IMG/VR virus record: IMGVR_UViG_3300017991_002758
Coordinates: 1 to 64,000 of that record
Reading direction: 5' to 3' (one strand)
DNA from: a virus
DNA: 64,000 bases
Position numbers and translations under genes: made by a program. Of the stretch, positions 1,852-14,910 are shown piece after piece. The notes beneath the pieces are model-generated. The model saw nothing but the letters and a program-made list of their open reading frames with translations, searched no databases and was not told the origin of the DNA. Positions within the stretch are counted from its first letter, which is position 1. Every line of letters starts with the position of its first letter.

Positions 1852-2883
1852 ATGCGTGAGCTGGCACTTTTTGCAGGGGCAGGAGGCGGCTTGCTGGCCT
1901 CACGATTGCTTGGATGGCGCACCATCTGCGCTGTCGAAATCGATCCCTACTGCCAGCAAAGGCTACTCGACAGACAGCGGGACAAGTGTTTGCCGCGATT
2001 CCCAGTATGGGACGATGTTTGCACATTCGACGGACACCCCTGGCGCGGACGCGTCGATGTCATCAGCGGAGGATTCCCGTGCCAGGATATCAGTGCGGCG
2101 GGTCAAGGTGCTGGAATTACCGGATCGCGTTCTGGACTTATCTTCGAAATGCTCAGAATCGTTGATGAAGTGCGGCCTACGTTTGTGTTCGCGGAAAACA
2201 GTCCGCAGCTTCGTACCAAGGGGCTGGCCACAATCGTCGAGAGATTTATCAGCATGGGGTATGTGGGACGAGTCGGGGTACTGGGAGCTGGGGACATCGG
2301 TGCAAACCATGAGCGAAAACGAATGTGGATCGTTGCCGTCTCCAAGGGCCTCATATGCGGACAGGGGAGGGCGGGGCGACCTGCTACAGGCGCTCAGAGG
2401 CAACAGCAACTCCCATTTCTCTGTGAAAGTGCCGACGCCAAGAGCAAACAAGTGGGGGCTGGAGGACAGCCACGGGAGTGTGGGTGGATGGGAGGGAGTA
2501 TTGGAAATGCTGCCAACTCCGACAGTATGCGGGGACTACGCCCGGAAGGGGGCGTCCTCCAGATCGGGCAATGGTTTGGCTACGGTATTGAACAAATTAC
2601 CCACCCCAAAAGTGCGGGAGGGTATAGATTGCAGATCGGAAAGGGCACGCCATGCACCAAATCTGGGGACAACACTAAATATGAGAATGAGAACAAAGTC
2701 ACTGACTGGTGGCGTCTACCCCGCTTTGCGGGAGTGGATGATGGGGTGGCCGATAGGTTGGACCGCATCAAAGCCACTGGCAACGGACAGGTTCCGGGAG
2801 TGGCTGCGCTCGTTTGGAGTGTGCTCACAAGTGATCTCACCGCTGTTAAGGCACGACAAAGAAGCGAAGGAAATCAGGAGTGA
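1852..2883 (+). CDS. C5 cytosine DNA methyltransferase, catalytic (alpha-type) polypeptide
   Basis: Motifs I (LFAGAGG), II (AVEID), IV (GGFPCQDIS), VI (AENSP), VIII (HERKRMWI), X (DRIKATGNGQVP); no motif IX in this frame. Confidence 0.92.
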   Translation: MRELALFAGAGGGLLASRLLGWRTICAVEIDPYCQQRLLDRQRDKCLPRFPVWDDVCTFDGHPWRGRVDVISGGFPCQDISAAGQGAGITGSRSGLIFEMLRIVDEVRPTFVFAENSPQLRTKGLATIVERFISMGYVGRVGVLGAGDIGANHERKRMWIVAVSKGLICGQGRAGRPATGAQRQQQLPFLCESADAKSKQVGAGGQPRECGWMGGSIGNAANSDSMRGLRPEGGVLQIGQWFGYGIEQITHPKSAGGYRLQIGKGTPCTKSGDNTKYENENKVTDWWRLPRFAGVDDGVADRLDRIKATGNGQVPGVAALVWSVLTSDLTAVKARQRSEGNQE

Positions 2884-3052
2884 TAAGATGGCGAAGCATC
2901 AGGATATTTGTAGCGGCGAAGAACTGACGTTCATTTGTGAGTGTTGTGGTGAGGAGTGCGGTGCGTGCTACGGAGCTTACGATGACTATCCAGAACTTTG
3001 CGACGATTGCTGGGCCGAGATTCCCAAAAAGGAGGAACGAGATGACGTTTGA
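1856..3052 (+). CDS. Overlapping alternative-frame ORF: putative beta polypeptide of the methyltransferase (motif IX plus PTP repeats)
   Basis: 398 codons without a stop across the MTase gene; contains YPALREWMMGWPIGWT (motif IX-like) and four (L/V)P(T/S)P repeats; true start uncertain. Confidence 0.7.
   Translation: MSWHFLQGQEAACWPHDCLDGAPSALSKSIPTASKGYSTDSGTSVCRDSQYGTMFAHSTDTPGADASMSSAEDSRARISVRRVKVLELPDRVLDLSSKCSESLMKCGLRLCSRKTVRSFVPRGWPQSSRDLSAWGMWDESGYWELGTSVQTMSENECGSLPSPRASYADRGGRGDLLQALRGNSNSHFSVKVPTPRANKWGLEDSHGSVGGWEGVLEMLPTPTVCGDYARKGASSRSGNGLATVLNKLPTPKVREGIDCRSERARHAPNLGTTLNMRMRTKSLTGGVYPALREWMMGWPIGWTASKPLATDRFREWLRSFGVCSQVISPLLRHDKEAKEIRSDKMAKHQDICSGEELTFICECCGEECGACYGAYDDYPELCDDCWAEIPKKEERDDV
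2888..3052 (+). CDS. small Cys-rich protein (also the in-frame tail of the 1856 ORF)
   Basis: AGGAG RBS before ATG 2888; CECCGEECGAC...CDDC. Confidence 0.5.
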   Translation: MAKHQDICSGEELTFICECCGEECGACYGAYDDYPELCDDCWAEIPKKEERDDV

Positions 3053-6386: not shown

Positions 6387-6578
6387 GAGAAGAAGAGAAC
6401 CGAGCAGTTGAACCTGCGGGTCACGCCGGAGGAGAAGGACGCGATCCGTGCCGCGGCGGAGGAGAATAACATCACCGTCACCGAATTGATGGTGACTGCC
6501 ACCTTTGACAAAATAAAAGACGAGGCCAGGGGATTCAAGGGCACGCTGCGCAGAATCAGGGAGGTTGAGAACATATGA
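6372..6578 (+). CDS. ribbon-helix-helix DNA-binding protein (DUF1778-like)
   Basis: KRTEQLNLRVTPEEKDAIRAAA....TVTELM. Confidence 0.8.
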   Translation: MVYIREKKRTEQLNLRVTPEEKDAIRAAAEENNITVTELMVTATFDKIKDEARGFKGTLRRIREVENI

Positions 6579-7243
6579 CCGGCAAGAAAAAAAATAAGGA
6601 TAAAAAAACCGACAATACGGTCAAACCGACAAAAGAAGTTAAAGTGCAGAAAGGTAGAAAACCATCGCAAAAGCCAGTTGCAAAGAAGCCGGGGGAAAAA
6701 AAGACAACAGCGCCGAGGATTTCGGCCGCCACCTACAATAAGCTCCAGGAGTCGTACTTCGAGCGCCAGTCGATCAATGCCGCGGCCAAGGCAGCGAAGG
6801 TTCATTTTAATACAGCGAAATGTTACATCGACGGCCCGGGAAAGCCCGAGGTTGGACTCGTTCCAATAAAGCAGATTTGGCTTGATGTTCAGACTGAGGC
6901 GCAAGAGCGAAAGCAGCTCACGTTGGTGAAATTCCAGGAGAAAATGGTAACCGAGGTGGAGACCATCGTTGAGACCAACATTGCCGAGCTGAGGTTGATT
7001 CGAGCTGAAGTTCAGCGTCGGGTCAAGAACTACAAGGACAGCCAGGGCACGAACATTGAAACAGGCTCGTCGATGAATTCCGCGCTGAAGTCATACGAGC
7101 GCGCCGTCAAGCTCATGGAGCATTTGCTCGGCAAACCGGATCTTACAGTGAAGCACGAGGGCGAGGATCGGTACGCGAGCTGGACCGATGACGAGATATT
7201 GGATTACATGGAGACGGGCAAGCTACCCGATCATGCCAGGTAA
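6575..7243 (+). CDS. putative terminase small subunit / HTH protein
   Basis: Lys-rich N-terminus, HTH-like SINAAAKAAKVHFNTAKCY, helical core; upstream of TerL; positional inference. Confidence 0.5.
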   Translation: MTGKKKNKDKKTDNTVKPTKEVKVQKGRKPSQKPVAKKPGEKKTTAPRISAATYNKLQESYFERQSINAAAKAAKVHFNTAKCYIDGPGKPEVGLVPIKQIWLDVQTEAQERKQLTLVKFQEKMVTEVETIVETNIAELRLIRAEVQRRVKNYKDSQGTNIETGSSMNSALKSYERAVKLMEHLLGKPDLTVKHEGEDRYASWTDDEILDYMETGKLPDHAR

Positions 7244-7360
7244 GCGCGGGTGGCGGAATGGCAGACGTGCTCCCAGGTTAGGGGAGTGCCGGGAAATAAG
7301 CAAACCTCTTCGGGAGGACCGAATACCCGGCGATTGCAGGTTCGAGTCCTGCGCCGCGCA
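7244..7360 (+). ncRNA. tRNA-like element (Leu/Ser-type D arm, canonical T arm, ~50-nt variable region, aberrant anticodon loop)
   Basis: GCGCGG/CCGCGC acceptor stem; TGGCGGAATGGCAGACG D arm; CTCCC/GGGAG stem with loop AGGTTAG; GCAGG-TTCGAGT-CCTGC T arm; no encoded CCA. Confidence 0.7.
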
Positions 7361-7373
7361 CACGGAGGTAGGC

Positions 7374-7577
7374 ATGGAGAATAAAGTCACTGAAATCGGA
7401 GGGTTCAAGGTCATTGAATGTGATGAGGTTGAGCCCGGCGTGGTCTATGCCGTCATTGGCCTCGGGTTCTATAATCCAGCGATTCTTCCTCGGCATGTCG
7501 TTTCCCGGGATGAGGATGGCGTGGCCCTGGGATTCAATGACGCGGTAAAAGTAATCGATTGCGGAAGGAATAGGTGA
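7374..7577 (+). CDS. hypothetical protein
   Basis: GGAGGT RBS before ATG 7374. Confidence 0.55.
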   Translation: MENKVTEIGGFKVIECDEVEPGVVYAVIGLGFYNPAILPRHVVSRDEDGVALGFNDAVKVIDCGRNR

Positions 7578-7581
7578 GCCA

Positions 7582-7836
7582 ATGGGTACTCCGGTAGATT
7601 TTAAGGAGATCGCTAACAGGGTCATCGATGGGATGATGGGCGAACTGACTGATGACGGTTGGGACATACTGGCAACGCATGTTCTTGACGGCCTATGCCA
7701 GAGAGTTTCCGATCTGACGAATGAACTGGACCAAGTTAGAGCTCGGCGCGCTGACGCTATTCGCATCATCGAGGAAAAACGCAAGGAAATCCACGACCTG
7801 AAAGAACGGGTCGCGCAATTGGAAAGGGAGAGGTAA
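7582..7836 (+). CDS. coiled-coil hypothetical protein
   Basis: Heptad-like C-terminal half. Confidence 0.6.
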   Translation: MGTPVDFKEIANRVIDGMMGELTDDGWDILATHVLDGLCQRVSDLTNELDQVRARRADAIRIIEEKRKEIHDLKERVAQLERER

Positions 7837-7840
7837 TCAC

Positions 7841-8485
7841 ATGGCAGAAGAGCAAGTCGAGAAAATTGTACCCGAGGTGCATTGCGCGCATACCGAAATG
7901 GTATCGCTGGTGAAGTTGGTTCCGAATCCGCGCAACCCCAATCGCCACCCTGAGCGCCAGATACAATTACTGGCGAAGATCATAACGGTTCAGGGCTGGC
8001 GTGCGCCGGTCACCATCTCCAATAGGTCAGGTTTCATTGTCAGAGGCCATGGCCGGTACGAGGCGGCCAAGCTTCTCAGTTTGGATGAGGTTCCGGTCGA
8101 CTACCAGGATTACGAGAGCGACGCCGCTGAGTGGGCCGACCTCATCGCCGACAACCGAATCGCCGAGTTGAGCGAGATGGATACCGTCGCTCTCAAGGAC
8201 CTGATGACGGAGATGGACAGCGGAGCCATCGATATGGACCTGACCGGGTTCGACAAGGATGCGCTCGAGGACCTGATGACCTGGGCTCCCGGCGATGGAG
8301 ATCTGCCGCCGGATTTACCCGAGCCACCGGTTTCAGGAGAGGACGACTCGATGGGCAAGCTGATGTTGGTTTACGAGACCGACGAGGAGCGCGAGGAGTG
8401 GCTGAGGCTCCTTGGGCTTGAAGGCACGGGTAATCAAGTGGTGTTTTGCCTGGACGACGTGAGGCACGATTCTGAGGGCGAGTAG
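7841..8485 (+). CDS. ParB/Srx N-terminal domain protein
   Basis: LVPNPRNPNRH...QI..L...I...GWRAPV...IVRGHGRYEAAK.L...VPV...IADNRIAE. Confidence 0.92.
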   Translation: MAEEQVEKIVPEVHCAHTEMVSLVKLVPNPRNPNRHPERQIQLLAKIITVQGWRAPVTISNRSGFIVRGHGRYEAAKLLSLDEVPVDYQDYESDAAEWADLIADNRIAELSEMDTVALKDLMTEMDSGAIDMDLTGFDKDALEDLMTWAPGDGDLPPDLPEPPVSGEDDSMGKLMLVYETDEEREEWLRLLGLEGTGNQVVFCLDDVRHDSEGE

Positions 8486-8493
8486 GAGGCGGT

Positions 8494-9189
8494 ATGTGTG
8501 GTGTCGTCGCCTACGCGACTCAGGAAGTCACTAAGGCTCAGGAAGCTTCCCTAATCCGGCTGTTCCGGGAGAGCAAGATCCGAGGCCTGCATGCCTGTGG
8601 GATCAGCTGGCTTTCCGAGGGCCGGCTACTGACCGCGAAATTCCACGAGGTCCCACAGCTTACTGCGCTACTGGAAGGGCTGCTCAGAGGCTTGCGAGGG
8701 CGCCCTCTGAAGCTGATAGGCCATACCCGATACTCAACCAGCGGAGATTGGGCCGATCATGCCAACAATCAGCCGTTGAATATCAAGGCCGGGCCGCCGG
8801 CCGGGAAGACAGGAGAGCTTCCTGACGTTCCTGAATCGGCCGTGAGTCTGGTGTTCAACGGCTGTATTCATATGGGCCTGCGGTCGGAGTACGAGGCCCT
8901 ATACGGCCGGGAGTACGTCACCGACAACGACGGCGAGATATTCTGCCGGAAGGTTCTGGACGGTGAGGATTGGGAGCGGTTCGTGGCCGAGGGCAGTTTC
9001 AGCTTCGCCGGCACCTTCATCTATCAGGGAAAGCTCGTTGTGATGCGAAACAGGAATCGCCCACTGTGGACTTGTACAGAGGATAGGGCAGTCTTCGTAG
9101 CTTCCACGGCCGACATTTGCCGCCGGGCCCAGTTGCCCGGAGAGCTCCAGGAGGTTGAGCCGTGCAAGGCCCAGGTAATTATAGTTTGA
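8494..9189 (+). CDS. class II (Ntn) glutamine amidotransferase
   Basis: N-terminal MCGVV, RGLHACG, IGHTRYSTSG, NNQP, VFNGCI, TDNDGE, RNRNRPL. Confidence 0.88.
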   Translation: MCGVVAYATQEVTKAQEASLIRLFRESKIRGLHACGISWLSEGRLLTAKFHEVPQLTALLEGLLRGLRGRPLKLIGHTRYSTSGDWADHANNQPLNIKAGPPAGKTGELPDVPESAVSLVFNGCIHMGLRSEYEALYGREYVTDNDGEIFCRKVLDGEDWERFVAEGSFSFAGTFIYQGKLVVMRNRNRPLWTCTEDRAVFVASTADICRRAQLPGELQEVEPCKAQVIIV

Positions 9190-9245
9190 AGCCCGGCGCT
9201 TTCGATCCCAGTACCGTGAGCCGGGCTCGCTCAAGCGATGCCGGT

Positions 9246-10148
9246 ATGAACGAACCGGTAGACTATATCACCTACCATGAAATGAGCCGACAGTGCGGCG
9301 ACTGCGACCCGGCGTACGATATGCTGAAGTACGTTTGCGACAGGTTCGAGCTGAACATGGAACAGCGATACTGGCTCGCCTTCTTGTACGCGACCTGCTA
9401 TTGCGGCGCGACGGTTTATTACATCTACAATGAATTCCCGGACTTCGAGAATGTCGACTTCGGCCGCCTCGAACGGTGGTGGGCAGCGAACCGAGACAAG
9501 CTGTACTTCCAGACTGATCGGCGCTGGGTCCGTTCCCGCAACCAGTGGTGTGATGTGATTCGCTCCTACACTTGCCACATGGGACGCCACGGCGAGCTGG
9601 GCTCGTATCAGGAGTCGGCGTTCAACCGATTCCGGACGAGCAACCCGCACGTGGCATACCGGATGCTGTACGACGACATGGGTCAGATCTATCAGATGGG
9701 AAGGTACGGCCTGTTCCTCTACCTGGAGGCTGTTCATGTCGTGACCGGGTTTCCGATGGCACCGGACACCATGGACATGAAGGACGGCTCCTCGGAGTCG
9801 AGTCGGAACGGACTGGCGTATGCAATCGGCTACCCGGCGCTCAGTGTTCACGGCCAAAAGCGACGACTCGAGCCGAAGTGGGTTCGTTACCTGCAACAGC
9901 GATTCGACGAGATGGTGAAGGAGCGAACGCAGAAAGATCCCACTGACGGAGTGTGGGCATTGGAAACGACGCTGTGCGCATACAAGAAGTACAGGATCGG
10001 AAAGCGGTATGTGGGCTATTACCTGGACCGCCAGGCCCGGGAAATTGAATCGATGGAGAGCAAAGTCACGGACGGCGTCGATTGGTCCGTGCTCTGGGAT
10101 TATCGGCGCGAGACATACGAACCGCGCTGGCTGAAGGAAGAGGCATGA
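9246..10148 (+). CDS. amino acid:DNA transferase (aGPT-Pplase clade 2 / AADT-like)
   Basis: WLAFLY, FQTDRR, GRYGLFLYLE, SRNGL, LETTLCAYKK..RYVGYYLDRQ pattern of this family. Confidence 0.78.
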   Translation: MNEPVDYITYHEMSRQCGDCDPAYDMLKYVCDRFELNMEQRYWLAFLYATCYCGATVYYIYNEFPDFENVDFGRLERWWAANRDKLYFQTDRRWVRSRNQWCDVIRSYTCHMGRHGELGSYQESAFNRFRTSNPHVAYRMLYDDMGQIYQMGRYGLFLYLEAVHVVTGFPMAPDTMDMKDGSSESSRNGLAYAIGYPALSVHGQKRRLEPKWVRYLQQRFDEMVKERTQKDPTDGVWALETTLCAYKKYRIGKRYVGYYLDRQAREIESMESKVTDGVDWSVLWDYRRETYEPRWLKEEA

Positions 10149-11002
10149 GCAACTACACTTGGGGTCACGAGATTGAGTGGGGAGATATTGACAAAACATT
10201 CGAGGTTCCGAAGGAGCTGGGCGCCTGGGAATATTGCGAAACCGACATCGTGAATATCAGGCCACCGTATCAGTACGTGGCCGTCGACCCGTTGGGCAAA
10301 AAGCCTCCTGTTGGCGGAGAGATAAATACGAAGCCGACGCGTACCTGGGCCGAGCAGATTGACCGAATCCTTGAGCTCCACGAGATGTTCGTCAAGCACG
10401 GCGACAAGCCGACGACATCGTGCGTGAACCACGGCCACATACATATTCATGTGCCCGGCCTGGACAAAGACATCGACGCGCTGAAGAGGCTGATGGTCTA
10501 CATTCGCGACAACCAGGAGGACACGGTCGAGCAATTGTACCAGTACCGGGACAGCCGGGACATGAAAGGGAGCAAAGGCGCTAAGCAATATCTGAAATAC
10601 GATGGCGGCCGGCTCATGCCGGATTACATGTTCGACAATATCCTCACGTCGCGCAACTTCGCTGAGTTTATTTTCTATCACTGCGCGGGGAAGGACGGGA
10701 AGTCCCGCGGCCGGCCATTCAGGTATGCGGTGAACACGTATTGCATGAAGCACCTGCGCACTATTGAATTCAGATGCCTGCGTTCAACAACAAAGTACGA
10801 GGAGCTGGTGTCGATGTTCAGCTTCATCGAGAATTTCATGGACGCGGCATTGAACGGCGGACCTTCGGTGAAGCAGATACTGGCCACAGGCCGATACACC
10901 TTTCCGCCATTCATCTTCGACAAGCAGGAGTATGACGGTTGGGAGAAAACGAAGTGGCCCAAATCCCGTGGCATAAAACAGCGGAGGTTCTATGCAATAT
11001 AG
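10145..11002 (+). CDS. amidoligase (COOH-NH2 ligase fold)
   Basis: TWGHEIE, GEINTKP, HGHIHIH, RYAVN, TIEFR. Confidence 0.82.
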   Translation: MSNYTWGHEIEWGDIDKTFEVPKELGAWEYCETDIVNIRPPYQYVAVDPLGKKPPVGGEINTKPTRTWAEQIDRILELHEMFVKHGDKPTTSCVNHGHIHIHVPGLDKDIDALKRLMVYIRDNQEDTVEQLYQYRDSRDMKGSKGAKQYLKYDGGRLMPDYMFDNILTSRNFAEFIFYHCAGKDGKSRGRPFRYAVNTYCMKHLRTIEFRCLRSTTKYEELVSMFSFIENFMDAALNGGPSVKQILATGRYTFPPFIFDKQEYDGWEKTKWPKSRGIKQRRFYAI

Positions 11003-11498
11003 GCAATGCAGCGCCGAACAATTCAGTCTCGCGGTAACAAATGATCCGCGGGATAAGTTCGCGAAGACGTTCATTGCCAAGGCAAACATGCAGAAGCTTT
11101 GGCCTTTTTGCATGGGAGTTTGGGACGGCGAGGTTCTCAAGGGTGCTGTCATCACCACGGTGAGCAAACGGAAGCCCAAGGTCGCGAACCTTCAACTGCT
11201 GCACGTGTTCGCCGCCAGCCGTCGCCAGGGGGTAGGAAGATCGCTCTGCGTTTGGGCATTAAGCTACGCGGGATATTGCAAGGCAGCGTACTTCCGTGTT
11301 TCGGCCGAGCCCGAGGCCGTGGAATTTTACGAGCGATGCGGGTTCAAGTTTTGGGGCAAGCAGAAGAGCGGTTGCTCATTGTGTATGTACAGAATAAGGG
11401 ACGGCAAGTACGACGCGAGCGACCCGGTCATTGACAAGGCACTGTTCAGTGGGCGGAAGGGTTCACTGGCCGTTTCATACAAGAAGGGCAAGGCATGA
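10992..11498 (+). CDS. GNAT acetyltransferase
   Basis: LHV...RRQGVGRSL acetyl-CoA motif and AVEFYERCGF. Confidence 0.9.
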   Translation: MQYRQCSAEQFSLAVTNDPRDKFAKTFIAKANMQKLWPFCMGVWDGEVLKGAVITTVSKRKPKVANLQLLHVFAASRRQGVGRSLCVWALSYAGYCKAAYFRVSAEPEAVEFYERCGFKFWGKQKSGCSLCMYRIRDGKYDASDPVIDKALFSGRKGSLAVSYKKGKA

Positions 11499-12028
11499 AG
11501 AAGCAACTGATTTACCTGATCGGGCAACCGGGCAGTGGCAAGAGCACTGTGACCAACGAGCTGTTCAAGGATCTTCCGTTCGAGCAGCACACGAAACCGA
11601 TTGCACACATTGAATACCCCAACAGCATCCAGCTCGGCGCCGTGCGCGAGAGTTTTAGCGGAACCGACGCCTACCCAATGAACATTCAACCCAAGGTGGT
11701 GCCGTTCATCAAGGAGGCGGATTGCATGTCGTTCTTCGCCGAGGGCGACCGCTTGGCCAACGACAAGTTCTTCACCGCGTGCGCGGCCGCCAGTATAGAC
11801 CTGACGGTATTCTTGCTGTTCACTCCCAATATCATTGCCGCGGAACGCCGCATGGCCAGGGGCAGCAACCAGAGCCCGACGTGGTTGAAAGGCCGCATCA
11901 CAAAAGTCATTCGCCTCTGGAAGCATTGGGGTCGCAAGCCATACGTACTGATGGGCAAGAAGGCGCCGGCGGAGATTGTAGAGGACATGCTGAAGCACGA
12001 GCAGGTTAGGAGGTTGGTGGAGCGATGA
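11495..12028 (+). CDS. P-loop nucleotide kinase of DNA-modification clusters
   Basis: Walker A GQPGSGKST, SGTD, EGDRL, lid ERR..RGS.Q. Confidence 0.82.
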   Translation: MKKQLIYLIGQPGSGKSTVTNELFKDLPFEQHTKPIAHIEYPNSIQLGAVRESFSGTDAYPMNIQPKVVPFIKEADCMSFFAEGDRLANDKFFTACAAASIDLTVFLLFTPNIIAAERRMARGSNQSPTWLKGRITKVIRLWKHWGRKPYVLMGKKAPAEIVEDMLKHEQVRRLVER

Positions 12029-13275
12029 CCCGATATTACACGACGCCGAGGTGGACAGCCGAGCTACCCGACTGTTCGATGCCAATGACCTTCGACCAGT
12101 ACAGTAATTGTGGTTATGGTTGCGTCTATTGCTTCGCGTCTTACCAGCGCGCCGTTGGCTTCGAGAGCAAGAAGGCCCGGTACCTGGCCGGCGAAGCATT
12201 GCCGGCAAATGTCGATTACATCAAGCGGATCTTCACGGAACCTGGCTACTCTCAATTCGCTGACTATGTCGCCAACCGCAAGACGATGCAGTGGGGAGGC
12301 ATGAGCGATCCGTTCTGTCCCATTGAGAAGAAACAGCGCGTGGGGCTCGAGCTGCTGCGGTTCTTCGCCGAGATCGATTACCCGATCTGTTTCAGCACCA
12401 AAGGCACGTGGTGGCTACGAGATGAGCGGTATACCGAACTTTTCAAGGGACGGAAAAACTGGAACGTGAAGGTGAGCATCATCACCATGGACCGCGAAAA
12501 GGCAAAGCGGGTTGAGCTCCGAGTGCCAACACCCAAGGCCCGGCTGCGAGCAATAGAGAAGATCGCCAAACTCGATTGCGGCGGAGCGACGCTCAGATTG
12601 CGACCGTTCATGCTGGGCATTTCCAATCCGACGCATACCGAATTAATTAAGGCCGCGGCCGATGCCGGCGCCACCGCAGTATCCACGGAATTCTTTTGCC
12701 TGGAGCGACGGAGCCCGGCGTTGCGCAAGCACATGCCAATGCTGAAGGAGGTCAGCGGTTTAGATTACATGGACCTGTACACCACGTACAGCAAGGGCGC
12801 CGGATACCTGAGATTGAACCGCAACATCAAGCGCCAGTTCATCAACGAGATGGAGGCTGCCACCCGGGACGCCGGCATGCGATTCTACGTTAGTGATGCG
12901 CACTTCAAAGAAAGGTGCGATAATGGATCTTGCTGCGGCCTGGACGAGAGCTGGAATTACAGTCGCGGTCAATTCTGCCAGGCTGTAACACTATGCCGCA
13001 GGAATGGTCGTGTCACATGGGATGAAATCGAACCCGACATGCTCGAATGCGGACTGCAAAAGATCCTCTGGCGTCAGGCGGAGAATTACAACACGGGCAA
13101 CGCCGGCCGGCGCGCGAAGTTTCACAAGCACACCATGCGAGATTATCTGCGCTGGCTTTGGAATAACCCCAAGGCCGGGCAATCGCCATACACCATGTTT
13201 CAGGGCATAATGAAGCCAGTGGAAAAGGACGAAAAGGGAAATCTGGTGTACGAGTACGACGCAACAATGGAGTAG
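12025..13275 (+). CDS. radical SAM enzyme (spore photoproduct lyase-like)
   Basis: DQYSNCGYGCVYCFA (CxxxCxxC), GGMSDPF, FSTKG, RVPTPKARL, extra CDNGSCCG. Confidence 0.88.
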   Translation: MTRYYTTPRWTAELPDCSMPMTFDQYSNCGYGCVYCFASYQRAVGFESKKARYLAGEALPANVDYIKRIFTEPGYSQFADYVANRKTMQWGGMSDPFCPIEKKQRVGLELLRFFAEIDYPICFSTKGTWWLRDERYTELFKGRKNWNVKVSIITMDREKAKRVELRVPTPKARLRAIEKIAKLDCGGATLRLRPFMLGISNPTHTELIKAAADAGATAVSTEFFCLERRSPALRKHMPMLKEVSGLDYMDLYTTYSKGAGYLRLNRNIKRQFINEMEAATRDAGMRFYVSDAHFKERCDNGSCCGLDESWNYSRGQFCQAVTLCRRNGRVTWDEIEPDMLECGLQKILWRQAENYNTGNAGRRAKFHKHTMRDYLRWLWNNPKAGQSPYTMFQGIMKPVEKDEKGNLVYEYDATME

Positions 13276-13278
13276 CCG

Positions 13279-14910
13279 TTGAACGCTGAACCGGCAATAG
13301 ATCTCACCGGCATGCAACAGAGCGGTGGAATAGAAACCTCGACTGACAGGGTTCATGAAGATTACGTTCTGCCTGTTGGTCATCTGCCGCGATTGCGGCG
13401 CTCTCGATATTTGCACACCTATTCTCGTAAACAGCTCGCCAAACGCGCCGAGGCCATGCGCTGGCGTCAGGTGGCATTGGCTCGGAAAAGTTCTTCGGCC
13501 TTTATGGAGTATGCCTTCGTCGAGGAAAAGACAGGCATACCGTTCAAGCAACAGTGGTTCCACGATGAGTGGCATGCCGCATGGGATAGTCACCAGCGCG
13601 TCCTCATCATTGCCCCTCGAGATCATGCCAAGACAAGCAACGTAGTGGGCCGGGCCATTTGGGAGCTAGGCCGGGATCAGAATCTTAGAAGTAAAATCGT
13701 ATGTGCTTCCGACGGCCGGGCCAAAGAGCGATTGTTCGAGATCGATCAGCACATCACCACCAATGACAGGGTGCGTGAGGTTTTCCCCGACCTCGAACCA
13801 GATCCCAAAGCGCCATGGAACGCGCACCGCCTGGTGCTCAGGCGCCGTGCCAAGCACAGGGACGCCAGCGTTGAGGCCTTGGGTATCAACAGCACGGCAA
13901 CAGGAGGCCGGGCCGATCTGCTGATAGCTGACGACGTGGTCGACCGCCGGAATGCGTTGTCGTTCCCAGCTCTGCGTGAACAAATAAAGCAGGCCTGGAA
14001 ATCAGATTGGACGAACCTTCTGGAACCGGACTCGCGAGTTTGGTACATCTGCACCCTTTGGTCGCCACAGGATCTCTCGCACGAATTGATGGACAACCCA
14101 GCGTACACCGTGATGCGCTACGACATCGACGAAGGCTTCGGTTCTATCTGGAAGGACAAGTGGCCGGAGCTGGCGCTGCGACAAAGGTACGCCGAAATCG
14201 GTAGCATCGAATTCAACCGAGCGTTCCGCAACCAGGCCATTGATCAGGACAGTGCGCTCATTCAACCAACATGGTTTCAGTTTGCAGATCTCCGGCAACA
14301 CGATGGATTCAACCAGGCGCTCGAACGCGACGAGCTCATCTTCCTCACCAGTTACGACCCGGCCGGGACGCCCACGGGAAAGAAGGATCAGGATTACACC
14401 GGACAATGCGCCGCGGCAATTCACCGTGACACTGGCATGGTGTACATCGTGGATGCCTGGCATCAGCGCATATCGGTAGCCAAGTCGGCGGAGACTGTTT
14501 ACGACGAGGCATGTCGGTACGAGCCCTGGCAAGTATTGATAGAGAAAGTCGGGCAATCAACTCTGGATGAGTGGGTAATTAACGAGCACCCGGAGCTGGC
14601 CGGGCTCGTCAGGGTAACCAAGCCCAGGGTTTCAAAAGCGATGAGGCTGATGGGCGCCACGCCATTGCTCGAAAAGGGCAAGGTCTTATTCAGCCATCAC
14701 CTCGATCCCAACAGTCCCGCTTTTCCCGGCAACCGCGGCAGCATTGTAGACGAGTTACAGGAATTCCCATTTGGGAAACATGATGATATGGTCGATGCGT
14801 TCTCTCAGCTTATTTCCGTCGCGCGCACCCACTTCCTTGACGTAGATTCCGACGGCGGAGAGAATGTGGTAGACTTGGTAACGGACGACAACGATGGGTA
14901 CTATTTCTGA
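13279..14910 (+). CDS. terL: terminase large subunit
   Basis: PRDHAKT Walker A, GGRADLLIADD Walker B, SYDPA...DYT and FPFGKHDDMVDA nuclease motifs. Confidence 0.95.
   Translation: MNAEPAIDLTGMQQSGGIETSTDRVHEDYVLPVGHLPRLRRSRYLHTYSRKQLAKRAEAMRWRQVALARKSSSAFMEYAFVEEKTGIPFKQQWFHDEWHAAWDSHQRVLIIAPRDHAKTSNVVGRAIWELGRDQNLRSKIVCASDGRAKERLFEIDQHITTNDRVREVFPDLEPDPKAPWNAHRLVLRRRAKHRDASVEALGINSTATGGRADLLIADDVVDRRNALSFPALREQIKQAWKSDWTNLLEPDSRVWYICTLWSPQDLSHELMDNPAYTVMRYDIDEGFGSIWKDKWPELALRQRYAEIGSIEFNRAFRNQAIDQDSALIQPTWFQFADLRQHDGFNQALERDELIFLTSYDPAGTPTGKKDQDYTGQCAAAIHRDTGMVYIVDAWHQRISVAKSAETVYDEACRYEPWQVLIEKVGQSTLDEWVINEHPELAGLVRVTKPRVSKAMRLMGATPLLEKGKVLFSHHLDPNSPAFPGNRGSIVDELQEFPFGKHDDMVDAFSQLISVARTHFLDVDSDGGENVVDLVTDDNDGYYF

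Follow-up and report, generated by a model that had tools for sequence, protein, structure and literature searches.

How can a phage that encodes no known source of 5-hydroxymethyluracil (5hmU) carry the enzymes that build on this base? The question is raised by a cluster of seven co-directional open reading frames (ORFs), filling positions 7841-13275 of the window, which is the first 64 kb of the 99,601-bp IMG/VR record IMGVR_UViG_3300017991_002758 (CheckV completeness 100%). The order of the encoded proteins is: a ParB-like protein, a glutamine amidotransferase (GATase), an AADT, an "amidoligase", a GNAT acetyltransferase, a P-loop kinase and a radical S-adenosylmethionine (SAM) enzyme (rSAM) resembling spore photoproduct lyase (SPL), followed by the large terminase subunit (TerL). 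To judge from its gene families, the cluster is a post-replicative thymidine-hypermodification pathway of a known kind, expressed with the packaging genes. An earlier note on this DNA had described an AADT/kinase-type cluster beside TerL, and the hidden Markov model (HMM) family matches bear this out. Known thymidine hypermodification begins from 5-hydroxymethyldeoxyuridine (5hmdU), which is made either before replication by a hydroxymethylase of deoxyuridine monophosphate resembling thymidylate synthase (TS), or on DNA by a TET/JBP dioxygenase (PMC8989533, PMC13229309). Relative to these known clusters, the comparison suggests that the novelty lies in an oxygen-free first step by the SPL-like rSAM. 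We put at roughly 55% the probability that the ParB-like protein and the rSAM do the work of the thymine dioxygenase and supply 5hmU without oxygen.

Search for a 5hmU source and comparison across IMG/VR

Profile searches of the 99.6-kb genome returned no match to PF00303, ThyX or Tet_JBP (PF12851 at E up to 1). A cryptic supply of 5hmdU by TS or ThyX was considered and rejected on the strength of the empty PF00303 and ThyX searches. The scan of 111 ORFs found no DNA polymerase, oxygenase or TS; it did reveal DnaB, a DnaD-like loader, RecT, a YqaJ exonuclease, lysis genes and myovirus structural genes. No pyridoxal phosphate (PLP) enzyme was found in the genome. Because many phage 5mYOX (TET/JBP) enzymes are missed by the Pfam TET_JBP model, according to the authors of the PNAS 2026 study (PMC13229309), a custom 5mYOX profile was built from 56 TETs taken from clusters of the closest type and run unfiltered against the six-frame stop-to-stop ORFs. 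Over the whole genome its best E was 1.5. As a control, the same profile recovered the divergent gp2 of mycobacteriophage Phelemich at 2e-33. The earlier note had assumed a supply of 5hmdU, and the genome is without any known one. Since the phage has neither a DNA polymerase nor 5hmdUTP synthesis, the starting point of the pathway must be the ordinary thymine of DNA replicated by the host.

The nearest known systems are the ParB-dependent 5mYOX clusters (O'Toole et al., PNAS 2026, PMC13229309). These are likewise headed by ParB, act after replication and start from thymine in DNA, and they share with the window the kinase/AADT or glycosyltransferase downstream enzymes and the terminase neighbourhood. 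The closest relatives of the window AADT belong to this cluster type (68/80). Unlike the 5mYOX clusters, the window genome holds no TET/JBP gene and has an SPL-like rSAM instead; radical SAM enzymes go unmentioned in that paper (PMC13229309).

Three independent samplings of IMG/VR were compared, centred on the amidoligase (326 contigs carry the family, 80 fetched), on the AADT (the 80 closest relatives of the window protein) and on the rSAM (102 loci analysed of ~480 contigs). The AADT-relative loci read ParB-TET-GATase-small GNAT-AADT-kinase-...-TerL. A TET alone is present in 68 of the 80 and an rSAM alone in two (L304, L327); none has both, and ten have neither, most of them being cut contigs. 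The amidoligase loci are ordered TET-GATase-amidoligase-GNAT-433-aa protein-AADT-kinase, where the 433-aa protein has a ParB-N-like core (hhalign 94%). GNAT is found in all 80 of these loci, GATase immediately precedes the amidoligase in 76, and rSAM occurs in none; among the 20 longer records of this sampling, TET is present in 19 and TS in none.

The typical rSAM locus is organized as (SAM synthetase)-ParB-[AADT-kinase-GNAT or sugar genes-TAGT]-rSAM-(~200-aa helix-turn-helix protein)-TerL-portal, TAGT being the TET-associated glycosyltransferase. Tet_JBP is present in 3 and PF00303 in 1 of the 83 other rSAM-bearing records, and among those at least 90% complete (n = 26) TET was found once and TS never. 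TAGT occurs, without TET, in 17 of the first 33 rSAM-bearing records. When kinase/AADT loci are pooled, 68 carry only TET, 35 only rSAM and none both, a count that is descriptive, the sets having been chosen by AADT or rSAM and many contigs being fragments. The window cluster reads as a TET-type cassette in which the TET slot is empty and an rSAM has been added after the kinase.

The position beside TerL is not peculiar to this phage but is shared by TET-type clusters. In the cultured mycobacteriophage Phelemich (cluster B), a TET-like gp2, an AADT (gp3), an FAD oxidoreductase (gp4) and a Ploopntkinase3 (gp5) stand directly before TerL (gp6), and this kinase is 38% identical to that of the window. 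Phelemich has a dioxygenase, an FAD enzyme and an aerobic host; it is without GATase, amidoligase, GNAT and rSAM. Both the cluster type and its TerL-side location are already known from Lee et al. 2018 and 2021, from O'Toole et al. 2026 and from the cultured phages Phelemich and Tonitrus. Against 50,697 cultured phages, megablast with the window cluster and tblastn with its rSAM each gave zero matches.

The rSAM family is found in ~480 IMG/VR contigs and in prophages of strict anaerobes, such as that of Selenomonas ruminantium S137 (L227). The GTDB genomes that carry it are nearly all strict anaerobes of gut or rumen, with Prevotella, Phocaeicola, Segatella, Faecalibacterium, Victivallales, Selenomonas, Collinsella and Methanomethylophilaceae among them; the closest GTDB match (73%) is a metagenome-assembled genome of Thermotogota. 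Because these hosts are strict anaerobes, an O2-dependent dioxygenase would be useless in them. The relatives of the TET-type kinase, by contrast, are found in phages of aerobic actinobacteria.

The radical SAM enzyme and the ParB-like protein

The CX3CX2C motif of the rSAM corresponds to C29/C33/C36 and is conserved in 22-23 of 23 sequences; C17 and C303/C304 are additional conserved cysteines. Its score against the Pfam radical SAM profile (28.0 bits) is just below the cut-off of 29.5. In NCBIfam it reaches 76.7 bits for PA0069 (cut-off 360) and 45 bits for Rv2578c (cut-off 430). Because these scores are far under the cut-offs of the SplB-like families, the protein is not regarded as an SPL orthologue; by sequence comparison, it is a separate family within the SplB-like (COG1533) clade.

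Profile sequence searches against the PDB retrieved neither SPL nor any other real match. In the AlphaFold2 (AF2) model (pLDDT 91), all top structural matches are radical SAM enzymes. The best solved fold is that of SPL (4fhg/4fhc), with a Foldseek E of 8e-8 and a VIA Z of 20.0 (rmsd 2.9 Å, 258 residues). Six SPL entries reach a VIA Z of 19.7-20.1, and the next rSAM family 16.0. The likeness extends to chemistry, as SPL (PDB 4FHC/4FHG) is a radical SAM enzyme acting on DNA through a thymine C5-methylene radical. The two differ in several respects: identity is 12-17%, the phage protein is extended by ~120 residues at its C-terminal end and has cysteines of its own, and it is found in a context of DNA modification, whereas that of SPL is repair. 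A role in SPL-type UV repair was considered and rejected, the carrier hosts being gut anaerobes.

Along the rSAM tree, kinase/AADT and glycosyltransferase contexts replace each other at least 10 times, and the sister of the window's clade has a glycosyltransferase context. Such frequent switching suggests that the job of the rSAM is independent of the group later attached. In three loci, the rSAM is fused to a TAGT domain (L007:1315-3348, L020:7191-9296 and a 700-aa ORF in L327). A SAM synthetase gene, recognized by its three MetK Pfam domains, lies upstream near ParB in 21 of the 102 rSAM loci (e.g., L174:4423-5451), which is consistent with heavy use of SAM. As a separate observation, the TAGT match in L027 and L028 (records G024 and G025) holds 12 in-frame TGA codons, and gene calling with the standard code left the rSAM there without an intact ORF; in these phages, TGA is probably translated as an amino acid.

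The ParB-like protein is tentatively assigned by its matches to PHROG ParB families (1e-19 to 5e-33), its Pfam ParB_N score of 19.5 bits being under the cut-off of 26.3. Its RGHGR motif aligns with the G(G/H)xR sequence (G-x-x-R box) of 21 ParBs from rSAM loci. In 74 of the 102 rSAM loci, one of the four genes preceding the rSAM encodes a ParB (positions -1 to -4). Experiments have demonstrated that ParB activates the T-dioxygenases of phages with clusters of the same kind, where it is needed on double-stranded DNA (PMC13229309). By analogy, the window protein is proposed to bind DNA and to activate, or act together with, the base-priming enzyme. We give even odds to the more specific idea that the SPL-like rSAM and its ParB partner form an O2-independent thymine C5-methyl hydroxylase on double-stranded DNA, a functional replacement of TET/JBP.

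Downstream enzymes and proposed pathway

All seven genes listed in the earlier note were confirmed in position and on the + strand; HMMs support six of the families, and the fold supports the amidoligase (Table 1). Successive genes are separated by gaps of 8 and 56 bp and then overlap by 4, 11, 4 and 4 bp, and a 3-bp gap precedes TerL.

Table 1. Genes of the cluster and the adjoining terminase gene, in window coordinates.
Feature	Length (aa)	Position	Strand	Support
ParB-N protein	214	7841-8485	+	PHROG 620 4.6e-33, phrog_498 3e-39
Stand-alone class II (Ntn) GATase domain	231	8494-9189	+	GATase_6 27.3 bits (cut-off 27), N-terminal Cys
AADT (formerly aGPT-Pplase2)	300	9246-10148	+	PF18724 82.8 bits (cut-off 26.2), 4e-23
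"Amidoligase", predicted GS/GCS/YbdK-fold carboxylate-amine ligase	285	10145-11002	+	AF2 + Foldseek
GNAT acetyltransferase	168	10992-11498	+	Acetyltransf_10 1.9e-11
P-loop kinase Ploopntkinase3	177	11495-12028	+	PF18751 87.4 bits (cut-off 27), 1.2e-24
SPL-like radical SAM	416	12025-13275	+	CX3CX2C, NCBIfam PA0069 1.6e-21
TerL		13279-14910		phrog_38 4e-71

The protein starting at 9246 had been named an AADT in the earlier note, and this identification holds. Its match covers nearly the whole PF18724 profile (positions 4-228 of 232), and the ATG at 9246 is backed by relatives that align from residue 1. The motif E240-T-x-L-C244 is invariant in all 24 aligned sequences and is the counterpart of E243/C247 in gp51 of phage M6. 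This Cys and Glu are essential for AADT activity, and the characterized enzymes act on 5-phosphomethyl-dU, to which they transfer Gly or Ser (PMC8989533). The window AADT is accordingly predicted, by family membership, to move a nucleophile onto 5-phosphomethyl-dU in DNA.

The kinase is 34-38% identical to the products of mycobacteriophage cluster-B "adenylate kinase" genes, which are located between AADT and TerL. A kinase stands beside the AADT in 56 of the 80 AADT-selected loci and is present in ~44 of the 102 rSAM loci. Ploopntkinase3 is proposed, from its family and its neighbours, to be the 5hmU-DNA kinase. It should be mentioned that P-loop DNA-base kinases (window 11495-12028; M6 gp54 at L192:16686-17249) are often mislabelled: phrog_800 and RefSeq name them "terminase small subunit", and mycobacteriophage records "adenylate kinase".

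The GATase begins with MCGVV, and this MC(G/A) start is conserved in nearly all relatives; it also matches GATase_7 (6e-5) and the N-terminal domains of GlmS and PurF in NCBIfam. The earlier note had paired it with the amidoligase. In the window, however, it abuts the AADT rather than the amidoligase, and across the AADT-selected loci it adjoins the AADT in 76 of 80, the amidoligase being present in one. Because this pairing is kept in relatives without amidoligase, the GATase probably serves the AADT, not the amidoligase. The GNAT further matches Acetyltransf_7 and Acetyltransf_1, and a small GNAT is also found in TET-type and rSAM-type clusters.

For the amidoligase, whose true start is the ATG at 10145, the Pfam search (E up to 0.01) gave no match to Amidoligase_2 or any other family, NCBIfam gave none, and PHROG none that was useful. 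Its AF2 model (pLDDT 89) folds like a carboxylate-amine ligase of the glutamine synthetase (GS) superfamily. The first 50 Foldseek matches in the PDB are exclusively GS, GshF, glutamate-cysteine ligase (GCS) and YbdK, with a probability of 0.97-1.0 for ranks 1-9 and TM scores of only 0.35-0.48. The motifs G-x-E-x-E, GGE-x-N, H-G-H-x-H and E-F-R are invariant, as are residues E9, E11, E59, H96/98/100, R190/193, E208 and R210. The family comprises more than 670 homologues at ~60% identity; its IMG/VR members always have GATase and GNAT as neighbours, and two weak relatives were found among cultured phages. Amidoligase and glutamine amidotransferase neighbours in IMG/VR contigs have been noted before as uncharacterized (PMC8989533). 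The combination of GATase, amidoligase and GNAT is without a characterized product, as the earlier note had held.

From the family assignments and gene distributions, which were observed directly, all the chemical steps of the following pathway are inferred. The ParB-like protein would bind the phage DNA and activate or position the rSAM, like ParB with the T-dioxygenases. The rSAM would cleave SAM, and the resulting 5'-deoxyadenosyl radical would take a hydrogen from the C5-methyl group of thymine. The allylic thymidyl radical, a species also handled by SPL and by M6 gp53, would then be oxidized and capture water, yielding 5-hydroxymethyl-dU without O2; this would be the new step. Ploopntkinase3 would phosphorylate the 5hmdU, and the AADT, through Cys244/Glu240, would displace the phosphate via an exocyclic methylene, a mechanism known at the level of the family. 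The incoming nucleophile would be either ammonia from the GATase, the more probable option, with 5-aminomethyl-dU as the result, or an amino acid. The GS-fold amidoligase, using ATP, would join a carboxylate and an amine on this adduct, and the GNAT would acetylate the leftover amine. The end product would be an uncharacterized N-acylated aminomethyl- or aminoacyl-thymine.

For the AADT and amidoligase steps alone, a variant is possible that is compatible with priming by ParB and rSAM and to which we give rather less than an even chance. Here, along the lines of the earlier note, the AADT would install a whole amino acid, GATase and amidoligase would amidate its carboxylate in the manner of asparagine synthetase, and the GNAT would acetylate the amine. 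The characterized AADTs do transfer Gly or Ser (PMC8989533), the GATase is the direct upstream neighbour of the amidoligase in 76 of the 80 amidoligase loci, and it is established enzymology that GS-fold ligases form acyl phosphates and class II GATases deliver ammonia. The role of the GATase cannot hinge on the amidoligase, however, because it is kept beside the AADT in the AADT-selected loci that have no amidoligase, and in the window itself it abuts the AADT.

Upstream of the cluster, where the earlier note placed a probable small terminase subunit, the ORF at 6575-7243 gave only weak leads to helix-turn-helix/TerS-like proteins in an Atlas look-up. The ORF at 7188-7577 is probably non-coding, as it has no family match and its Atlas model has a pLDDT of 0.30. 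ARAGORN returned zero tRNA across 6500-8000, a region with a proposed 117-nt tRNA-like RNA (7244-7360). Beyond the window, in the replication/lysis arm, genome positions 85914-86870 (L003:4914-5870) encode a DUF5131 (phage Gp37/Gp68) protein (PF07505 1.4e-22).

Competing explanations and biological meaning

Several points weigh against priming by ParB and rSAM, beside the descriptive nature of the pooled count. The record is linear without terminal repeats, so that there is a small chance that a genome end is missing. TET and rSAM are not strict alternatives, as they co-occur in three related records (L010-L012). The kinase has no PF18748 (HMUDK_HMUD1) match, and BLASTP aligns it with M6 gp54 over the P-loop alone (E 0.04); to our knowledge, the PF18751 family has never been assayed, and it differs from the proven 5-HMUDK family. 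We also know of no characterized precedent for an SPL-like rSAM that hydroxylates a methyl group. The one characterized phage relative, the remote homologue M6 gp53, is a tailoring isomerase and not an initiator. Finally, the genome encodes a C5 cytosine methyltransferase (1828-2883), so that 5-methylcytosine (5mC) could be the target.

The three records with both enzymes (e.g., L011:5767-10986) read ParB-TET-ParB-rSAM-TAGT-SPASM radical SAM. Each candidate base-priming enzyme stands there behind its own ParB, and the TAGT is followed by another rSAM, which has a SPASM domain. TET and rSAM may serve in these phages as an aerobic/anaerobic pair.

The strongest rival takes the rSAM for a tailoring enzyme like M6 gp53, which would rearrange or trim the AADT adduct (e.g., by N-to-C isomerization), while 5hmU would come from an unrecognized source such as an undetected oxidase, a host function or a lost part of the genome. 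The model for this explanation is found in phages M6 and PaMx11 (Lee et al., NAR 2021/22, PMC8989533). The window shares with them the Cys/Glu pair of the AADT and the adjoining P-loop kinase, with PaMx11 the acetyltransferase, and with M6 an SplB-like rSAM, gp53, a proven isomerase of N-alpha- to C-alpha-glycinylthymine. Annotated as "DNA repair photolyase", gp53 is a remote homologue of the rSAM family (BLASTP E 3e-4 over 100 aa; hhalign 93%, E 2.7e-7, 232 columns), and in M6, as in the window, the rSAM gene ends the cluster beside the kinase. The failure of the Pfam TET_JBP model to detect many 5mYOXs also leaves room for an overlooked oxidase.

The differences from M6 and PaMx11 are considerable. 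These phages use a TS homologue to make 5hmdU ahead of replication, and they encode a DNA polymerase; the window phage has neither, is also without PLP decarboxylase and FAD lyase, and has a kinase that belongs to PF18751 instead of the PF18748 of M6. In M6, gp53 works beside the TS homologue gp58 and the PLP decarboxylase gp52, both absent here. With remote homology only and neither a PLP enzyme nor PF00303, the window does not match a gp53-type isomerase pathway. An overlooked oxidase is disfavoured by the empty custom 5mYOX search, by the 26 near-complete rSAM-type genomes, which are without TS and, save one, without TET, and by the strictly anaerobic hosts. TET-type clusters with the same GATase, GNAT, AADT and kinase set need no rSAM. 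The earlier note had itself assigned the rSAM to tailoring; an initiating role is more likely, as the enzyme is exclusive with TET in kinase/AADT loci. Tailoring is further disfavoured because the rSAM tracks ParB and terminase and is found equally in glycosyltransferase clusters that have no AADT and no amino-acid adduct to act on, even fused to TAGT. We regard this explanation as unlikely.

A cytosine target is still less probable. According to this explanation, the phage methyltransferase makes 5mC, rSAM and ParB oxidize it to 5-hydroxymethylcytosine, and kinase, AADT and the remaining enzymes build on the product. The methyltransferase ORF at 1828-2883 (PF00145 8.7e-33, phrog_363 1e-57) lies ~5 kb upstream on the same strand, and 5mC may thus be present in the DNA of this phage. 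There are phage TETs that use 5mC produced by a phage methyltransferase (PMC8256090). Unrelated genes, however, intervene between the methyltransferase and the cluster, and PF00145 was found in 1 of 33 other rSAM-bearing records and in none of the six that are at least 90% complete. The characterized AADTs use 5-phosphomethyl-dU (PMC8989533), and a C5 methyltransferase accompanies only ~6% of the 5mYOX pathways (PMC13229309). Overlapping the methyltransferase ORF is a 398-aa frame at 1856-3052 (+) that matches methyltransferase PHROGs as well (phrog_1008 3e-12); the two frames could be a frameshifted or two-frame methyltransferase gene.

According to the weakest explanation, ParB and rSAM are packaging or repair genes unrelated to the modification cassette, with ParB as a nuclease or an aid to packaging, the rSAM as a repair lyase of the photoproduct type, and the AADT/kinase cassette idle or acting on another hydroxyl. 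Although the two genes flank the cassette without being interleaved, ParB-like genes beside terminases are common in phages, the rSAM adjoins terminase genes in most loci and its best structural match is a repair enzyme, this is very improbable in view of the TAGT-rSAM fusions, the strict complementarity of rSAM and TET in kinase/AADT loci, the proven activation of phage T-dioxygenases by ParB in like clusters (PMC13229309), the absence of UV for gut and rumen hosts, the NCBIfam scores far under the SplB-like cut-offs and the SAM synthetase genes of 21 loci, which hint at heavy SAM use.

Priming by ParB and rSAM would have consequences beyond this phage. Biology is known to reach 5-hydroxymethylpyrimidines in DNA by two routes, through TS-like hydroxymethylases, whose substrates are nucleotides, and through O2-dependent TET/JBP enzymes, whose substrate is DNA. 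Neither route is available to phages of gut and rumen anaerobes if they are without polymerase and live without oxygen, yet the downstream genes for kinase, transferase or glycosyltransferase are present in hundreds of them. An rSAM that supplies the hydroxymethyl group would close this gap in the source of 5hmU. It would represent a third biological route to 5-hydroxymethylpyrimidines, a new type of radical SAM reaction and a new C-H functionalization on DNA, and the chance of new enzymology is sizeable. None of the papers searched ties an SPL-like rSAM to 5hmU production. The idea of ParB as an activator would then reach beyond the dioxygenases, and an anaerobic enzyme for site-selective derivatization of thymine would become available. 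The set of GATase, amidoligase and GNAT, for its part, predicts an as yet uncharacterized thymidine adduct, which would be relevant to the evasion of restriction and CRISPR and to the reading of modified bases in gut viromes. If the proposal is correct, phages of strict anaerobes would build hypermodified bases on 5hmU.

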